DNA from: Syntrophomonadaceae bacterium
GTDB lineage: Bacteria; Bacillota; Dethiobacteria; DTU022
Assembly (NCBI GenBank): GCA_003567725.1
Contig: PWYU01000077.1
Coordinates: 1 to 64,000 of the forward strand
Length of the DNA stretch: 64,000 bases
Direction: 5' to 3'
Part shown: positions 40,409-48,505 of the stretch, in pieces
Layout of the letters: the number at the start of each line of letters is the position of its first letter
Numbering within the stretch: position 1 is the stretch's first letter
The notes under the pieces: generated by a model
Seen by the model: the letters and a program-made list of their open reading frames with translations, nothing else
What the model was told of the DNA's origin: nothing
Databases searched by the model: none
Translations under genes and position numbers: made by a program

Positions 40409-41029
40409 ATGAAAGAGTTTGAAGGAACTGGAAAAACTCTGGATGAAGCAATAGAAAAAGCTATCAGAAATCTTGGCATTAAAAGAGAAAACGCTGAAAT
40501 TGAAGTAAAAGAGTCTCCAAACCAGGGTATATTGGGACTGCTTGGCACTAAAGATGCCAGGGTTATGGTTAAGCCGAAAAAGAGTCCCGCAACTTTTATA
40601 AAGGATTATTTAGAAGAGCTTCTTAAATATATGAAGATAGAAGGAAACATTAAAGCAGTAGAGGACGAGGAAAAGTTAAATATTGAGATTTATGGACCGG
40701 ATGTAGGAAGCTTAATTGGGAGAAGAGGTAAAACGCTCAGCGATTTACAATATTTGCTAAGTGTAATAGTTAGGCGGCAATTTGCTGAATTAGGCAAAAT
40801 GGTTGTATTAGACGTGGAAAACTACAGGGAGAGAAGAGAAAAGACATTAATTCAATTAGCAAAAAGTATGGCCAGGAAAGTTAAAGAAGAAAATGTGGAA
40901 ACAGCACTGGAACCAATGACCCCCCAGGAAAGAAGAATTATACACTTAGCTTTGCAAGATTATCCGGACATTACGACAATTAGTAATGGGGAGGAGCCAA
41001 ATCGTAAAGTGGTAATTGTTCCACGTTAA
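40409..41029 (+). CDS. jag: Jag/KhpB (KH + R3H RNA-binding) protein
   Basis: 206 aa with a Jag_N domain, a KH region and an R3H C-terminus (…QERRIIHLALQDYPDITTISNGEEPNRKVVI). Confidence 0.85.
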   Translation: MKEFEGTGKTLDEAIEKAIRNLGIKRENAEIEVKESPNQGILGLLGTKDARVMVKPKKSPATFIKDYLEELLKYMKIEGNIKAVEDEEKLNIEIYGPDVGSLIGRRGKTLSDLQYLLSVIVRRQFAELGKMVVLDVENYRERREKTLIQLAKSMARKVKEENVETALEPMTPQERRIIHLALQDYPDITTISNGEEPNRKVVIVPR

Positions 41030-41043
41030 ACATTTCTGCAGCT

Positions 41044-41113: not shown

Positions 41114-42505
41114 TTGATTGAAAATGATACCATTGCAGCAATTAGCACTCCACTTGGAGAAGGTGGTATAGGTATAGTCCGATTAAGTGGCCCGGAATCA
41201 TTTAATATTGCCAGCAAAATATTTGAAATATCATCTAAAAAAGCTTCGGGTTTTCCTGTTGATCGTTTCCTTTATCATGGTTTTATAAAAGATTTTCAAA
41301 ATAATATTGTTGATGAAGTCCTGGTAGCCTATATGTCCGCACCGCATACCTATACACGGGAAGATATAGTAGAAATAAATTGTCACAGTGGCATATTTAC
41401 ATTACGCACAATACAAAAACTGGTTTTAGAAGCAGGAGCAAGCTTAGCAGAGCCGGGTGAATTTACAAAAAGAGCCTTTATCAATGGCAGGATTGATTTA
41501 AGCCAGGCTGAAGCAGTAATGAATATGGTGCGCGCTCGCTCAGAACAAGCTGTTAAAATTGCCGCCCGGGGGTTGCAAGGAGAAGTAACAAGTAAGGTAG
41601 AGAAAGTAAGGGAAAGCATTATAGCCATGAGGGCTCCACTAGAAGCTTTATTTGATTATCCTGAAGAATTTCCTGAAGAAGAACTTTCAGTTATTTCACT
41701 AACAGTCCATATAGAGGATTTAATTGGCTATTTAAAAGAAATGCTAAAAGGAACGGAAAGAAATAGAGCTTATCAAGAAGGAGTATCAGTAGCTATTATC
41801 GGTAAACCTAATGTTGGCAAATCGTCCTTATTAAACATATTATTACAACAACAGAGAGCGATTGTACATGAGCTTCCGGGGACGACAAGAGATGTCCTGG
41901 AAGGCTATTTAAACCTGGGCGGTTACCCAATCAGGCTAATTGATACAGCAGGCATTCAAGGTACCATTGATCCGGTTGAAAAACAGGGGATAGACTTATC
42001 ACGTTCTGCAGCAGGGCAAGCAAAATTAATAATAATGGTTCTAGATGGATCTGAAAATTGGTCTGAGGAAGATCAAGAGATCTTAAATCTGAGGCAGCAA
42101 GATCAGGGGTTTATTATAGTTATAAATAAATCAGATCTGAAAAGAAAACTAAAACCTGACATATTTAGTAAGTACTTGCCTGATGTTAATATAGTAGAAG
42201 CTTCAGCTTTGGAAGGTACAGGCATAAAAGAGCTAGAAGAAGCAGTCGTTAATCAGCTGGATAGAAAATATCAGGCTGAAAAGTTCGGCGAAAGCCCGAT
42301 CATAGTAACAATTAGACATGAAGAGAGCATCAAGCATGCTGTTGAGCATCTTGAAAAGGCTAAAGAGATAACAACAGAACAACCATTAGAATTAGTCAGC
42401 CTGGAACTGCAAAATGCCTGGGATAAACTGGGCGAAATAACCGGTGATACTATTAATGAAGACCTCCTAGATAAAATATTTAAAGAATTTTGCTTGGGTA
42501 AATAG
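41114..42505 (+). CDS. mnmE: tRNA modification GTPase MnmE
   Basis: 463 aa with a TTG start and RBS GGTGGTGA. It has N-terminus DTIAAISTPLGEGGIGIVRLSG, the G-domain GKPNVGKSSLLN…DTAG, and the C-terminal CxGK motif (FCLGK). Confidence 0.9.
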   Translation: MIENDTIAAISTPLGEGGIGIVRLSGPESFNIASKIFEISSKKASGFPVDRFLYHGFIKDFQNNIVDEVLVAYMSAPHTYTREDIVEINCHSGIFTLRTIQKLVLEAGASLAEPGEFTKRAFINGRIDLSQAEAVMNMVRARSEQAVKIAARGLQGEVTSKVEKVRESIIAMRAPLEALFDYPEEFPEEELSVISLTVHIEDLIGYLKEMLKGTERNRAYQEGVSVAIIGKPNVGKSSLLNILLQQQRAIVHELPGTTRDVLEGYLNLGGYPIRLIDTAGIQGTIDPVEKQGIDLSRSAAGQAKLIIMVLDGSENWSEEDQEILNLRQQDQGFIIVINKSDLKRKLKPDIFSKYLPDVNIVEASALEGTGIKELEEAVVNQLDRKYQAEKFGESPIIVTIRHEESIKHAVEHLEKAKEITTEQPLELVSLELQNAWDKLGEITGDTINEDLLDKIFKEFCLGK

Positions 42506-42534
42506 TTGTAAGAATTGAGAGATCAAATATAATT

Positions 42535-43263
42535 ATGACATCAAAACATATTGATCAAATGATTGAAGACATGCTGGAAGCGCTTGAGTTAAAAACTGCT
42601 TCTAGCAGTAAAAAGGAACAATTAAGGCAATATGTAATATTACTGTTAAGTGGTTTAAAAAAGACAAGATTGACCGGTGAAAAGACAGCGGAAGGGATTA
42701 TCAAAAAACAAATCTATGATTCTTTGTCAATATTAAAGTTTTTTAATTTCAATCCTGGAACAGAGGTAGTTGACTTAGGTAGTGGGGGTGGGCTACCCGG
42801 ATTACCGGTAAAAATATGTAAACCGGATATTAAAGTATACTTTATGGACGCTAACCGAAAGAAAGCGTTATTCCTAACAGAAGCTATTACAAATCTAAAT
42901 ATAAATCAAGCAGAGGTGCTTTGTGGTAGGGCAGAAGATTACGGGCAAAGCGCAGAACACCGTGCAAGATATGATTTAATACTCTGTAAGGCGGTAGCAA
43001 AAACAGCAGTGCTGGCAGAATTGGCATTGCCACTGGTAAAAATGGGGGGAAGCGTTGCTTTATATAAAGGACCGCTGGGAGCTATGGAAATTCAAGAAGC
43101 TGAAAATGCAATTGCTGTTTGCGGGGGACAGCAGGAAAATAGCTGGCACTATAAGCTGCAAAACGGAGAAGAAAGAACCCTTTATTTAATTAAAAAAAAT
43201 AATGTTACTCCATCTAAATATCCCCGGCGGGCTGGCAAGCCTTCAAATAATCCAATAAAATGA
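42535..43263 (+). CDS. rsmG: 16S rRNA (guanine527-N7)-methyltransferase RsmG
   Basis: 242 aa with a SAM-binding motif VVDLGSGGGLPGLP. It follows mnmE after only a 29-nt gap, with no mnmG. Confidence 0.85.
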   Translation: MTSKHIDQMIEDMLEALELKTASSSKKEQLRQYVILLLSGLKKTRLTGEKTAEGIIKKQIYDSLSILKFFNFNPGTEVVDLGSGGGLPGLPVKICKPDIKVYFMDANRKKALFLTEAITNLNINQAEVLCGRAEDYGQSAEHRARYDLILCKAVAKTAVLAELALPLVKMGGSVALYKGPLGAMEIQEAENAIAVCGGQQENSWHYKLQNGEERTLYLIKKNNVTPSKYPRRAGKPSNNPIK

Positions 43264-43302: not shown

Positions 43303-44232
43303 GTGAAAAGTGGAAGGAAAGCAGTAGCGTCTGTCAAAATGAATCTAAAGAAGAATTACAAAAAGGATGCTGGTATAATGACCGAACCCCTGAATAATCA
43401 AAGATTGACTACTGAAATGGAACCATCAACCGATAAGGTTTTGGCAATCGATATAGAGCGCATTAAGCCAAACCCCTTTCAACCAAGAAAAGAGATAGCA
43501 AAGGATAAAGTTGACGAATTAGCGCAATCAATACAGGCTTCTGGTTTAATACAGCCAATAGTAGTGAGAAGATTTGAAAATGGTTACCAGCTGGTTGTTG
43601 GAGAAAGGCGATATCTTGCCTGTAAACAGCTTGGCTGGAAAAAAATATCTGCAGCGGTTAAAATTATATCTGATAATGATATGGCCACCACAGCTTTAAT
43701 AGAAAACCTGCAAAGGGAAAACTTAAATATGATAGAGGAAGCAAATGGTTATGTCAGTTTAATGAAGAATTTTAATCTAACGCAGGAAGTATTAGCGCAG
43801 CGATTGGGTAAAAGCCAATCAACAATAGCTAATAAAATCAGGTTGTTAAAGCTTCCCCATGAAGTGCGCGTTAAAATACAAGAGCATAATTTGACCGAAA
43901 GACATGCACGCGCTCTTCTAAAATTGGATACCAAAGAAAAGCAATTGCAGATGATTGAAGAGGTTGTGCATAGAGGCCTTACGGTAAGCCAGGCAGAAAA
44001 ACGGATAGATAAATTAAGCGGGGACTCTGAACATGGGAAAAGGCTAAAGAAATCAAAACCGGTAATAAGAGATATGCGTATTGTATTAAATACAATTAGA
44101 GAAGCAGTTGCTGTAATGCATGATTCAGGTTTATATCCTGAAGTTGATGAAACGGTAGAAGAAGACTATATTGAAATTAATATTAGGTTAACCAAGGAAA
44201 TGCTTAAAAAACATAAAATAATCAGTAAATAG
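43303..44232 (+). CDS. noc: ParB-family nucleoid occlusion protein (Noc-like)
   Basis: The ParB N-terminal domain reads …KPNPFQPRKEI… and …IQPIVVRR…GYQLVVGERRYLA…. An HTH is present. The start is uncertain among GTG 43303 and ATG 43339, 43378 and 43417. Confidence 0.75.
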   Translation: MKSGRKAVASVKMNLKKNYKKDAGIMTEPLNNQRLTTEMEPSTDKVLAIDIERIKPNPFQPRKEIAKDKVDELAQSIQASGLIQPIVVRRFENGYQLVVGERRYLACKQLGWKKISAAVKIISDNDMATTALIENLQRENLNMIEEANGYVSLMKNFNLTQEVLAQRLGKSQSTIANKIRLLKLPHEVRVKIQEHNLTERHARALLKLDTKEKQLQMIEEVVHRGLTVSQAEKRIDKLSGDSEHGKRLKKSKPVIRDMRIVLNTIREAVAVMHDSGLYPEVDETVEEDYIEINIRLTKEMLKKHKIISK

Positions 44233-45910: not shown

Positions 45911-45926
45911 TGTTTCACGTGAAACA
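45911..45926. promoter_or_regulatory. parS centromere site (perfect palindrome)
   Basis: TGTTTCACGTGAAACA matches the Firmicute parS consensus tGTTNCACGTGAAACa. It is embedded in a 28-bp palindrome (45905-45932) 14 nt after the spo0J stop. Confidence 0.75.
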
Positions 45927-46156
45927 TTCTTGAAACAGAAGAGGTGCTTTATTTTTGCCCTGCTCTCTGATTAAAGTATACAGTTCTTCAACTTCTGAAA
46001 AAGAGAATATATGGTTTGTCCGTTCTTGAAGAGATATGTTATACTGATCAAGTGAATTGGTCGGGGAGAATGCCAGGTTTGGTATTAAAGAAACCCGATT
46101 TTTTTAACTTAATGAACAGTCTTAATAATGTTTTTCTCAAGGAGTAGCTAAGGGTT

Positions 46157-47143
46157 ATGTCATCTAAAAAAGAAAAACGCTGTTTCACTATCATGATAGT
46201 GCCTCATTCAGAGGAAGCTACTTTTAGCTTGAAAATCCCTCTCTTTTTAGTTCAGTTAGCAATAGGGCTCCTGGTTTTAGGGGTCGTTGGTTTTAGTGTA
46301 CTTGGTTATGCATATTTAAGGGCTGCTTCTGAGGCTCAGGAGGCAGAGGCGCTAAGGCAGTTGAACCGGGCACAGCAGGAAGAAATAGATTCACTGGCTA
46401 TCGAAACTGAAAAAATGATGGAACAGCTTCGAGGTGTTGATGAGCTGGTAGAATTTGTTACAGAAAAACTGGAGTTAGAGAAAGAGGAAATGGAAGATCT
46501 AAATGATGAAATAGAGAATCAATCACAATCCAATCCATCACAGCAAGCAACTTATAATTACGCAGGCAATGAAAGCTCTTATTATTTTAATAGTATCGGT
46601 CCCCTGATTTATGATCGTCCTGATGAACAACTGTCGCCAGGAAGAGATTTGTTTGATCGCACTGCCGGCAATATTGAAGTGCTTAAAAAAATAGTCCCTG
46701 AGAGATCCGGTACGCTTGATTTACTTGGTGAATATGCTGAAAAAGCCAGGGCAAAACCTTCAATTTGGCCTGCCAGGGGTCGCGTTTCTTCAGGCTTCGG
46801 AATGAGATCTATCCCTTATAGCGGAGGCTATCAATTCCATACCGGGGTAGATATAAACGGCTCACGAGGTTCACCTATCTGGGCTACAGCTAGCGGCAAG
46901 GCAACTTTTTCTGGATACAGGGGTAGCCTGGGTAATTTGCTAATACTAGATCATGGTTATGGTTATGAAACCTATTATGCACATCTCTCCGGCTTTGCCG
47001 TTAAAGCAGGTGACGAAGTGGAAAGAGGGGAAACTATTGGTTATATGGGCGCATCAGGAAGAACCACAGGGGTTCATCTGCACTACGAGGTTCATAAAGA
47101 AGGTTCGCCTGTAAACCCAGAACGATATTTAGGTCAAAGATAA
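46157..47143 (+). CDS. Membrane-anchored M23 (LytM-family) metallopeptidase with coiled-coil linker
   Basis: 328 aa with an N-terminal TM, a Glu-rich coiled coil, and an M23 domain (HTGVDINGSRGSPIWATASG…HLHYEVH). Confidence 0.85.
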   Translation: MSSKKEKRCFTIMIVPHSEEATFSLKIPLFLVQLAIGLLVLGVVGFSVLGYAYLRAASEAQEAEALRQLNRAQQEEIDSLAIETEKMMEQLRGVDELVEFVTEKLELEKEEMEDLNDEIENQSQSNPSQQATYNYAGNESSYYFNSIGPLIYDRPDEQLSPGRDLFDRTAGNIEVLKKIVPERSGTLDLLGEYAEKARAKPSIWPARGRVSSGFGMRSIPYSGGYQFHTGVDINGSRGSPIWATASGKATFSGYRGSLGNLLILDHGYGYETYYAHLSGFAVKAGDEVERGETIGYMGASGRTTGVHLHYEVHKEGSPVNPERYLGQR

Positions 47144-47175
47144 TAATTAAGACTATTACTAAGGAGGAAAAACGG

Positions 47176-47652
47176 ATGTTTAAAAAGGATAATCTTGAAG
47201 TGCCGTCTGATAAAGTGAATACAATCATTGGAAAAGATACTCATTTTAACGGAACGATAAATGGTAAAGGTTTAATCAGGATCGACGGAGAAGCAGAAGG
47301 CATTATCAACAACCAGGGTGATGTTGTTGTTGGCGAAAGCGGCCGGGTTTCAGTGGAAATGAAAGCGAGAAATATAACCATAGCCGGTAAGTATGAAGGT
47401 GCTCTGGAAGCAGAAGGTAAGCTGGAATTAAAAAGAACTGGACGGGCCATCGGTACTTTCAAAGCTAACGCCCTGTTAGTTGAAGAAGGGGCGGTGCTTT
47501 CAGGTAAAATGGAAATGCAACAACAAGAAGGTGAAGTAGAAGGTCAGGTCAAAAAAGAAAAGGTATATGGGCCATTTGATTCAGACCGATCAGATCAAAG
47601 CAAAAACAAAGGGCCTTTAGGGGATAAATCTTCAAAAGAAAAAGCTTTGTAA
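47176..47652 (+). CDS. Bactofilin (DUF583 polymer-forming cytoskeletal protein)
   Basis: 158 aa. The beta-helical repeat core reads …TIIGKDTHFNGTINGKGLIRIDGEAEGII…VVVGESGRVSVEMKARNITIAGKYEGALEA…. RBS AAGGAGG. Confidence 0.85.
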   Translation: MFKKDNLEVPSDKVNTIIGKDTHFNGTINGKGLIRIDGEAEGIINNQGDVVVGESGRVSVEMKARNITIAGKYEGALEAEGKLELKRTGRAIGTFKANALLVEEGAVLSGKMEMQQQEGEVEGQVKKEKVYGPFDSDRSDQSKNKGPLGDKSSKEKAL

Positions 47653-47695
47653 TTGAAAGAATGAGCATGATGTTTTATTAATGAGCAGATCGTTG

Positions 47696-47730
47696 ACAGG
47701 AAGCAGTGTAATTCGCTTCCTGTTTTCTAT
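47696..47730 (+). terminator. Putative rho-independent terminator after the bactofilin gene
   Basis: acaggaagc-(10-nt loop)-gcttcctgt followed by TTTTCTATTT. Confidence 0.55.
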
Positions 47731-47857
47731 TTATTATTATTGGCTTTAATAATTTTATACCTCGATGGCAGGAATTATAATTATAAAGTAGAATTTTATT
47801 TATTTGTATACTTAATAAAGAAATTAATCTTTTTTATCTGAAAAGCGAGGTGTTAAA

Positions 47858-48505
47858 ATGTTGATTATCCTTTTAGGTCCGCCAGGAGCAGGTAAAGGGA
47901 CACAAGCTGATAGGATTGTCAAAAACTTTAATTTGGCATATATATCAACAGGTGATATATTGAGAAAGGCGGTAAAAGAAGAGTCTGCACTTGGCCGTAA
48001 GGCACGAGAATATATGGATCAAGGGCAGCTTGTTCCAGACAACCTGGTGGTTGAGATCGTACGGGAACGGCTGGTTGAGCCAGATTGCGCTAATGGAGCG
48101 CTTTTGGATGGCTTTCCCAGAACGGTGGATCAAGCGGTATTTTTGGAAAAGGTTTTGCCCGAAACCAAAGCAACTATTGATCGAGTTTTATTAATAGAAG
48201 TAGAAGAAAATGAGTTAATTGAACGTCTTACAGGAAGAAGGGTCTGTTGTGATTGCGGCGCAAACTATCATGTCAAATATAAATCTCCAAAAGTCCGTAA
48301 TGTCTGTGATCAATGTGGAGGCGATCTCTATCAAAGAGACGACGATTCTCTGGCCACAGTAACAGAACGGCTTGAGGTTTATAAAAAGCAAACCGAACCA
48401 TTAATTAAATTCTACCAGGAAAGAGATTTGCTTTATACCATAGATGGAAACAAGGACATTGAAGATGTTTATGAACAAATCAATGATGTCTTAAAAGAGC
48501 TTTAA
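47858..48505 (+). CDS. adk: Adenylate kinase (long form with Zn-binding LID)
   Basis: 215 aa with the P-loop GPPGAGKGTQ and LID cysteines C-x2-C…C-x2-C (CCDCG…CDQCG). Confidence 0.9.
   Translation: MLIILLGPPGAGKGTQADRIVKNFNLAYISTGDILRKAVKEESALGRKAREYMDQGQLVPDNLVVEIVRERLVEPDCANGALLDGFPRTVDQAVFLEKVLPETKATIDRVLLIEVEENELIERLTGRRVCCDCGANYHVKYKSPKVRNVCDQCGGDLYQRDDDSLATVTERLEVYKKQTEPLIKFYQERDLLYTIDGNKDIEDVYEQINDVLKEL

Follow-up and report, generated by a model that had tools for sequence, protein, structure and literature searches.

A probable BacA-LmdC-type gene pair, M23 endopeptidase and bactofilin, beside the partition locus of a Dethiobacteria genome

We analysed a 64,000-nucleotide (nt) stretch of a genome labelled Syntrophomonadaceae bacterium (NCBI assembly GCA_003567725.1, contig PWYU01000077.1, positions 1 to 64,000; class Dethiobacteria in GTDB), referred to below as the window. 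The subject is a pair of adjacent genes on the forward strand, which lie directly after the partition genes and encode an M23 metallopeptidase of 328 residues and a bactofilin of 158 residues (Table 1). The two open reading frames are separated by a 32-nt spacer (47144-47175), and each has its own ribosome-binding site; the CAAGGAG sequence at the site of the peptidase gene is invariant in the alignment of relatives. The first protein matched Pfam Peptidase_M23 with E=2.5e-33 and 114.6 bits (cut-off 28.7), residues 226-321 spanning all 96 profile positions. The second matched the bactofilin family PF04519 with E=1.8e-24 and 86.3 bits (cut-off 27.9), residues 16-112 spanning profile positions 1-97 of 98. 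An initial annotation, made from the letters of the sequence, had placed such a pair at these coordinates with the same spacing and a strong ribosome-binding site before the bactofilin gene, and had proposed a Pfam scan as a check; the sequence and both profile matches bear it out. An identical copy of the pair is found on contig SLJP01000103.1 of NCBI assembly GCA_007135065.1.

The catalytic domain of the peptidase was examined in two homologue alignments, one of 50 close sequences and one of 79 more diverse sequences with a mean column identity of 34%. All of the zinc-binding and catalytic residues of an M23 (LytM) domain are present, namely H228 and D232 (the HxxxD motif), H276, and H307 and H309 (the HxH motif), and every one is invariant in both alignments. 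AlphaFold2 modelled residues 209-319 with a predicted local distance difference test score (pLDDT) above 92. A Foldseek comparison with the PDB returned a probability of 1.00 for 3SLU, 6MUK, 5J1L, 6UE4 and LytM, the aligned part being the M23 domain alone. By both sequence and fold, the domain comes closest to active endopeptidases of solved structure: 3SLU and 6MUK (43% identity, root-mean-square deviation 2.4), 6JMX/6JMY, 5J1L, and ShyA 6UE4. Entry 5J1L was matched through its chain A by sequence (E=3.8e-25) and through its chain C by fold (36% identity, root-mean-square deviation 2.0). Entry 6JMX/6JMY carries the title 'peptidoglycan peptidase', and we take it to be Pgp3 of Campylobacter. 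These comparisons are consistent with a catalytically competent M23 domain, which is probably a DD-endopeptidase.

The remainder of the peptidase resolves into a series of distinct segments. Its hydrophobic residues 29-53 follow a basic tail, as the initial annotation had described when it called the protein a membrane-anchored metallopeptidase, and the positive-inside rule would put the N-terminus inside the cell. The short tail so assigned to the cytoplasm is the most conserved part of the protein besides the catalytic domain in the alignment of 79 homologues. Its residues lie within the motif (K/R)xFTIMIVPHSEExx(F/Y)SxRxP, and T11, P16 and H17 are invariant among these 79. AlphaFold2 with the same alignment predicted two strands in the tail, at residues 9-14 and 23-28, with a pLDDT of about 92 in a model whose overall mean was 82.9. 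We propose that this predicted β-hairpin may serve as a docking site for the bactofilin.

From residue 29 to residue 119 the model is a single continuous helix, which begins with the hydrophobic stretch and continues as an amphipathic stalk. Averaged over blocks of ten residues, the pLDDT of the stalk helix is 86-98 up to residue 100, falling to 70 for residues 101-110 and 48 for residues 111-120. A conserved block, LRQxNRAQQEEIDxLAxET, is found in the stalk in the alignment of 50 homologues, and the helix may, by analogy with LmdC, form a coiled coil. The following linker has a pLDDT below 50 over residues 115-162 and is variable in length and rich in gaps among the same 50 sequences, in which R168, N172, L176, P181 and L187 of the two helices preceding the catalytic domain are invariant. 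A profile search with the peptidase against 1.84 billion representative proteins yielded 8261 matches at E<=1e-30. The best 150 of these are mostly 300-340 residues long and aligned end to end, and among them a related tail motif occurs in 92 of the 128 representatives of 250-400 residues. The family is large and its architecture constant.

The bactofilin matched two solved bactofilins by sequence, 6RIA (E=5.7e-14), presumably that of Thermus thermophilus, and Bactofilin A 2N3D (E=2.8e-6). Its C-terminal tail varies among relatives. The MFKK start, with F2 followed by lysines, is close at the sequence level to the global bactofilin N-terminal consensus MFSKKKK, which is reported to be common to Bacillota bactofilins; the membrane-targeting peptide defined experimentally in Caulobacter BacA is MFSKQAKS (PMC12448750). 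The first eight residues of the window protein are listed in Table 1 as a putative membrane-targeting peptide. In relatives, the bactofilins retain (M)FKKDN also when the gene begins with a codon other than ATG. Most relatives (L001-L031) seem to use such a non-ATG start, with FKKDN kept in all of them, and in stop-to-stop translations the residue before FKKDN is L or V (for example, at about 8650 in L002 and about 9026 in L009).

The initial annotation had named loss of co-conservation in related genomes as a result that would speak against a functional pair; instead, the pairing is retained throughout. A bactofilin gene lies directly 3′ of the origin-linked M23 gene in 24 of the 24 close loci that retain downstream DNA, where the M23 proteins are 54-78% identical to that of the window, and a search with the bactofilin profile confirmed the pairing at these loci. 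The same order was found in all seven of the more distant Firmicute lineages compared, Thermosinus and Dehalobacterium included, at 30-52% M23 identity. The profile found no bactofilin in 13 unrelated M23 loci of other phyla, nor in the paralogue loci described next. The closest genomes are metagenome-assembled and labelled Syntrophomonadaceae bacterium or Bacillota bacterium by NCBI, and their isolate names (T1Sed10, CSSed, B1Sed) presumably denote soda-lake sediment samples; the more distant homologues are labelled Dethiobacteria.

Four relatives encode a second M23 protein on another contig, of 350-370 residues and 51-53% identity, which bears the same cytoplasmic tail motif, RCFTI(L/M)VIPHSEEATFSLR. 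The corresponding loci are L016 (940-1989), L019 (8001-9050), L021 (8001-9044) and L022 (793-1836), whose genomes also carry the origin-linked pair on a different contig. In a fifth locus with the second copy, L025 (8001-9035), the origin-linked copy was not recovered from the genome.

The two genes are bracketed by a predicted promoter and a terminator, both conserved. The promoter candidate agrees with the sigma-70-type consensus at 9 of 12 positions and has the TG of an extended -10. Its block TTTGTC...TGTGTTATAAT, of which TGTGTTATAAT is the -10 part, is conserved in close relatives, and nearly every origin-linked locus has an element resembling TRTGNTATAAT 5′ of its M23 gene. Downstream of the bactofilin gene, direct folding confirmed the terminator with which the initial annotation had closed the pair, giving a stem-loop (47695-47724) with a centroid structure of -14.8 kcal/mol before a U-rich tract. 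The consensus terminator scan had missed it because the loop limit of that scan is 8 nt. In a custom scan of 22 loci, the window included, 16 showed a comparable hairpin and T-run 3′ of the bactofilin gene.

Between promoter and start codon, the leader would form a terminator-like hairpin with an outer stem GGUCGGG/CCCGAUU and an inner stem AAUGCCA/UGGUAUU, starting about 15 nt past the predicted -10 and, with its U-run, ending roughly 35 nt 5′ of the ribosome-binding site. Twelve relatives retain the outer stem and T-run; in more distant ones, the same position is occupied by a different hairpin, again with a T-run. Consensus folding of the 12 aligned leaders revealed no compensatory changes, leaving the structure unproven by covariation, and an Rfam search of the leader gave chance-level matches only and no family. 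The hairpin may be an attenuator or expression damper. It may instead be the terminator of parAB, placed 3′ of the next promoter; either arrangement would damp expression, which would fit the report that the level of lmdC expression appears to need precise regulation (PMC10945521).

Table 1. Features of the bactofilin and M23 peptidase locus, in coordinates of the window
Feature	Coordinates	Strand	Basis or detail
Perfect parS palindrome TGTTTCACGTGAAACA	45911..45926	.	genomic context; just past the parB stop, about 100 nt 5′ of the operon promoter
Predicted sigma-70-type promoter, TTGTCC, 18-nt spacer, TATACT, TG extended -10	46016..46045	+	consensus scan
Terminator-like leader hairpin, then seven U	46059..46105	+	fold; hairpin 46059-46100
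Ribosome-binding site AAGGAG of the M23 gene	46140..46145	+	11 nt 5′ of ATG
Putative LmdC-type M23 metallopeptidase gene	46157..47143	+	Pfam, homologue alignment, fold
Cytoplasmic tail, residues 1-28 (MSSKKEKRCFTIMIVPHSEEATFSLKIP)	46157..46240	+	predicted β-hairpin
Transmembrane helix, residues 29-53 (LFLVQLAIGLLVLGVVGFSVLGYAY)	46241..46315	+	hydrophobic stretch preceded by KKEKR
Extracytoplasmic stalk helix, residues 54-119 (coiled-coil-like)	46316..46513	+	AlphaFold2 helix
Low-complexity linker, residues 120-162, predicted disordered	46514..46642	+	AlphaFold2
Two conserved helices 5′ of the catalytic domain, residues 163-199	46643..46753	+	AlphaFold2: 163-179, 181-199
M23 (LytM) catalytic domain, residues 209-321	46781..47119	+	Pfam, invariant residues, pLDDT
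Ribosome-binding site AAGGAGG of the bactofilin gene	47161..47167	+	8 nt 5′ of ATG
Bactofilin gene (158 codons plus stop)	47176..47652	+	PF04519, match to solved bactofilins
Putative N-terminal membrane-targeting peptide MFKKDNLE	47176..47199	+	fits published consensus
Bactofilin β-helical polymerisation domain, residues 16-112	47221..47511	+	PF04519
Charged low-complexity C-terminal tail, residues 113-158	47512..47649	+	outside the Pfam domain
Intrinsic terminator, 10-bp stem, 10-nt loop, then U-rich tract	47695..47740	+	stem-loop 47695-47724

The closest published counterpart is the BacA-LmdC pair of Hyphomonas neptunium and Rhodospirillum rubrum, in which Pöhl et al. (2024, eLife) found that BacA binds the LmdC tail directly (PMC10945521). 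In LmdC, a cytoplasmic tail with a β-hairpin leads into a transmembrane helix, which is followed by a coiled coil and the M23 domain; mutation of the conserved hairpin abolishes recruitment, the H. neptunium protein has DD-endopeptidase activity in vitro, and the BacA-LmdC pair controls cell shape (PMC10945521). The window pair fits this kind in every feature testable here. As in those species, adjacent and co-oriented genes encode a bactofilin, with an MF-x-K-K N-terminus, and a single-pass M23 peptidase whose short cytoplasmic tail, with its predicted β-hairpin, is followed by the transmembrane helix and a long helical stalk, and whose M23 domain has a full set of zinc ligands. The window genes are 32 nt apart whereas those of H. 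neptunium overlap, the window hairpin abuts the membrane helix directly, and the window peptidase has 328 residues compared with at least 405 in H. neptunium LmdC. In addition, the host is a Firmicute, with an assumed single membrane. Overall, domains, fold and solved-structure matches support the assignment of the pair as a cell-shape or wall-remodelling module, as the initial annotation had it, and we put the probability that it is a bicistronic morphogenetic module of the BacA-LmdC type at roughly 0.75.

Several observations weigh against this assignment. When AlphaFold2 was given the shallow alignment of 50 sequences, residues 1-20 became a low-confidence coil without a hairpin, so that the tail hairpin rests on one good prediction. 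When the window tail, FTIMIVPHSEEATFSLK, was compared with R. rubrum LmdC over residues 20-36, RHFPDRHLMVRSDGAMR, the 17 residues that could be reconstructed from mutagenesis primers (PMC10945521), no clear similarity was seen; the likeness to LmdC therefore lies in a hairpin predicted ahead of the membrane helix and not in a sequence motif. No bactofilin gene was found near the second tail-bearing M23 copy in the relatives' loci, which indicates that adjacency is not obligatory for tail-bearing enzymes. Finally, the literature searched contains no experimental study of an M23-bactofilin pair in any Firmicute. In this last respect the initial annotation was right to call the Firmicute pairs poorly characterized, but the arrangement itself has already been catalogued, with bactofilin-M23 gene pairs reported from 226 species of many phyla, Firmicutes among them (PMC10945521). 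Figure 7-source data 1 of that work lists pairs in Paenibacillus, Desulfosporosinus, Desulfitobacterium, Pelosinus and Alkaliphilus, and also in Clostridium clariflavum, C. stercorarium, Bacillus cellulosilyticus, Natranaerobius thermophilus and Syntrophomonas wolfei; a Dethiobacter-type lineage is not named in the table (PMC10945521). A 2026 paper on Borrelia likewise terms the bactofilin-M23 pairing evolutionarily conserved.

Other bactofilin systems resemble the window pair less closely. In the csd1-csd2-ccmA cluster of Helicobacter pylori and with Campylobacter Pgp3, which are determinants of helical shape, an M23 peptidase gene also adjoins a bactofilin gene, and the Csd1-Csd2 dimer (5J1L) is among the best solved-structure matches. 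In contrast to that cluster, the window has one M23 gene and no Csd2-like inactive partner. The link between CcmA and Csd1 is reported to be indirect, running through other Csd membrane proteins, whereas we propose a direct tail contact for the window pair. The NCBIfam model for Pgp3 is the second-best match of the peptidase, at 84 bits, which is far under its 300-bit cut-off. BacE and BacF of Bacillus subtilis, which are linked to flagellar function, are Firmicute bactofilins with the same Pfam domain. They are encoded at a different locus, the yhbDEF operon, together with a DUF4004 regulator and not with an M23 peptidase (PMC13649987).

If the pair is indeed a module of the BacA-LmdC type, the following mechanism may be envisaged. 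The bactofilin would polymerise independently of nucleotide along the inner surface of the membrane, where the many copies of the MFKK N-terminal peptide would hold the polymer. The M23 protein would cross the membrane once with its N-terminus inside the cell, and its 28-residue tail, folded as a β-hairpin, would dock on the bactofilin polymer. The long stalk helix and flexible linker would then carry a competent M23 domain into the wall. Because the domain is tethered to the filament, cross-links would be cut only where the filament lies, and such local cutting could change wall growth and adjust shape, be it curvature, width or pole form. The operon would be read from its own housekeeping-type promoter, via the leader hairpin, to the terminator 3′ of the bactofilin gene, and the terminator-like hairpin probably limits how much of a dangerous hydrolase is made.

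The find is correct but fairly ordinary, given that the pairing has already been described across many phyla including Firmicutes, and it leaves the picture of how bactofilin-M23 modules work unchanged. Bactofilin-guided wall hydrolases are an emerging general route to cell shape, every tested case being double-membraned (Gram-negative-type), and the locus offers a clean example, in which the tail is very conserved, within an uncultured Firmicute lineage, presumably of soda lakes. Three small points are new: the M23 copy that has the same tail and no bactofilin, the conserved leader hairpin, and the parS site directly upstream, so that the operon sits behind both parS and a leader terminator. 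The widespread tail motif with its invariant T, P and H could help to find bactofilin clients. In the relatives with both M23 copies, two enzymes with the same tail accompany one bactofilin, which suggests that a single scaffold serves two client enzymes.

The parS palindrome is the only perfect match in the window, where 0.07 would be expected by chance, and it is invariant in the aligned relatives. Many relatives have two perfect copies in the spacer between parB and the M23 gene, where the window has one. The initial annotation had already recognised that the pair follows noc-soj-spo0J-parS, a position that profile matches and the perfect parS now confirm. This setting raises the alternative that the bactofilin, with or without the peptidase, anchors or positions the ParB-parS origin complex at a pole or a subpolar site, in the manner of BacNOP-PadC in Myxococcus xanthus, or that ParB loaded at parS regulates the operon. 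In its favour, parA-parB-parS is followed directly by the pair in the window as in all close relatives, and the pair lies in the region downstream of parB in five of the seven distant lineages, several times behind a DUF4446 gene and before yyaC (DUF1256). In locus L055 (4946-5001) the spacer between parB and the start codon of the M23 gene shrinks to 54 nt, within which a perfect parS is found, and co-transcription with parAB is likely there. Moreover, the BacNOP-PadC system shows that bactofilins can organise ParABS (Lin et al. 2017, PMC5703909).

Other observations speak against it. In the window the pair has its own conserved predicted promoter about 100 nt 3′ of parS, and adjacency may simply reflect a conserved backbone, since synteny in the close relatives extends over the entire yidC-to-ssb block in every case. 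In the distant loci L054 and L056 the pair is far from parB yet still paired, so that the constant partner of the bactofilin gene is the M23 gene and not parB. A DUF4446 gene stands directly 5′ of the M23 gene in three of the seven distant lineages, with further genes before parB in two of these, and in Thermosinus it lies two genes 5′ of the M23 gene. No PadC-like adaptor, an extra ParB-like protein, was found among the scanned genes of the locus (noc, parA and parB on the 5′ side; adk, DUF951 and ychF on the 3′ side). In M. xanthus, which belongs to a different phylum, the bactofilin gene bacM comes directly 3′ of the chromosomal parAB operon, yet its product serves cell shape and has no part in positioning ParABS, the scaffold for which is built from bactofilins encoded elsewhere; no M23 gene is mentioned between parB and bacM in the passages of that study consulted (PMC5703909). 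A partition scaffold of the PadC type was rejected, as the locus lacks an adaptor and the pairing persists away from parB. We consider a role in positioning the origin, or regulation of the operon by ParB, improbable. It is equally improbable that, in the lineage of the window and in many further Firmicutes, the module is coupled to the origin partition complex, either through control of the operon by ParB at parS or through a membrane-bound bactofilin patch that tethers the ParB-parS region. If true, either form of coupling would connect where the wall is remodelled with how the origin is segregated, and the leader terminator and second tail-bearing M23 copy would add further layers of control on one scaffold.

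Another alternative is that the peptidase is a non-catalytic LytM factor, an amidase activator such as EnvC, NlpD or DipM that the bactofilin only localises. Although NCBIfam and PDB matches do include NlpD, EnvC, ActS and DipM, the best matches by sequence and fold are the active endopeptidases listed above, and the H. neptunium homologue LmdC is active in vitro. M23 proteins without activity lack residues needed to bind the metal cofactor (PMC10945521), whereas all five zinc-binding and catalytic residues are invariant in the 79 homologues here. With the zinc site intact and its ligands invariant, this possibility was rejected as very unlikely. Least probable of all, and rejected, is a sporulation device, with a SpoIIQ-like or engulfment M23 protein at work on the forespore and a bactofilin that marks either the septum or the engulfing membrane: SpoIIQ is likewise an N-terminally anchored M23-domain protein, PDB matches include SpoIIQ 3UZ0 and 3TUF, and spore germination genes occur close to one of the distant loci, but the SpoIIQ model NF053738 scores 62.3 bits against a cut-off of 250, far too low for SpoIIQ identity, and is outscored by the NCBIfam models of the active endopeptidases Pgp3, MepM and ShyA, the promoter fits the sigma-70-type consensus with an extended -10 (the one type covered by the scan), and phyla that do not sporulate also have pairs with this architecture (PMC10945521). 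The further proposal of the initial annotation, that a place after noc-soj-spo0J-parS ties the module to the pole, the division site or the forespore, is thus not upheld, in view of this SpoIIQ score, the pair's own promoter, the two lineages in which it is unlinked, and the cell-shape role of M. xanthus BacM (PMC5703909).

The genes around the pair were identified by profile matches as yidC, jag, mnmE, rsmG, noc, parA (soj) and parB (spo0J) on the 5′ side, and adk, DUF951, ychF, an AI-2E transporter gene, rpsF and ssb on the 3′ side. By published coordinates and the genome sizes that we assume, the pairs of S. wolfei and N. thermophilus lie roughly 10 kb from the chromosome end. In more distant Firmicutes, DUF4446, M23 and bactofilin genes may form a unit of three, whereas the lineage of the window has no DUF4446 gene at this position. 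The DUF4446 gene 5′ of the pair was located in L051 (4456-4980), L053 (4495-4977), L057 (4411-4905) and L052 (3124-3639), with a gap of 20-95 nt in three loci and two genes away in Thermosinus. A second parS-like site of the window, TGTTCCACGTTAAACA (41017-41032), has one mismatch and overlaps the 3′ end of jag. The noc assignment rests on TIGR04285 at 320.7 bits, narrowly over the cut-off of 315, and the open reading frame as listed (43303-44232) has a GTG start about 40 codons 5′ of the first residues that match the model. In the window and likewise in all related loci, mnmE is followed directly by rsmG (42505-42535), with no mnmG (gidA) between them. The adenylate kinase gene (47858-48505; NF001380, 321 bits), which is usually part of the ribosomal-protein cluster, lies here between the bactofilin gene and DUF951, and this position is conserved in relatives.

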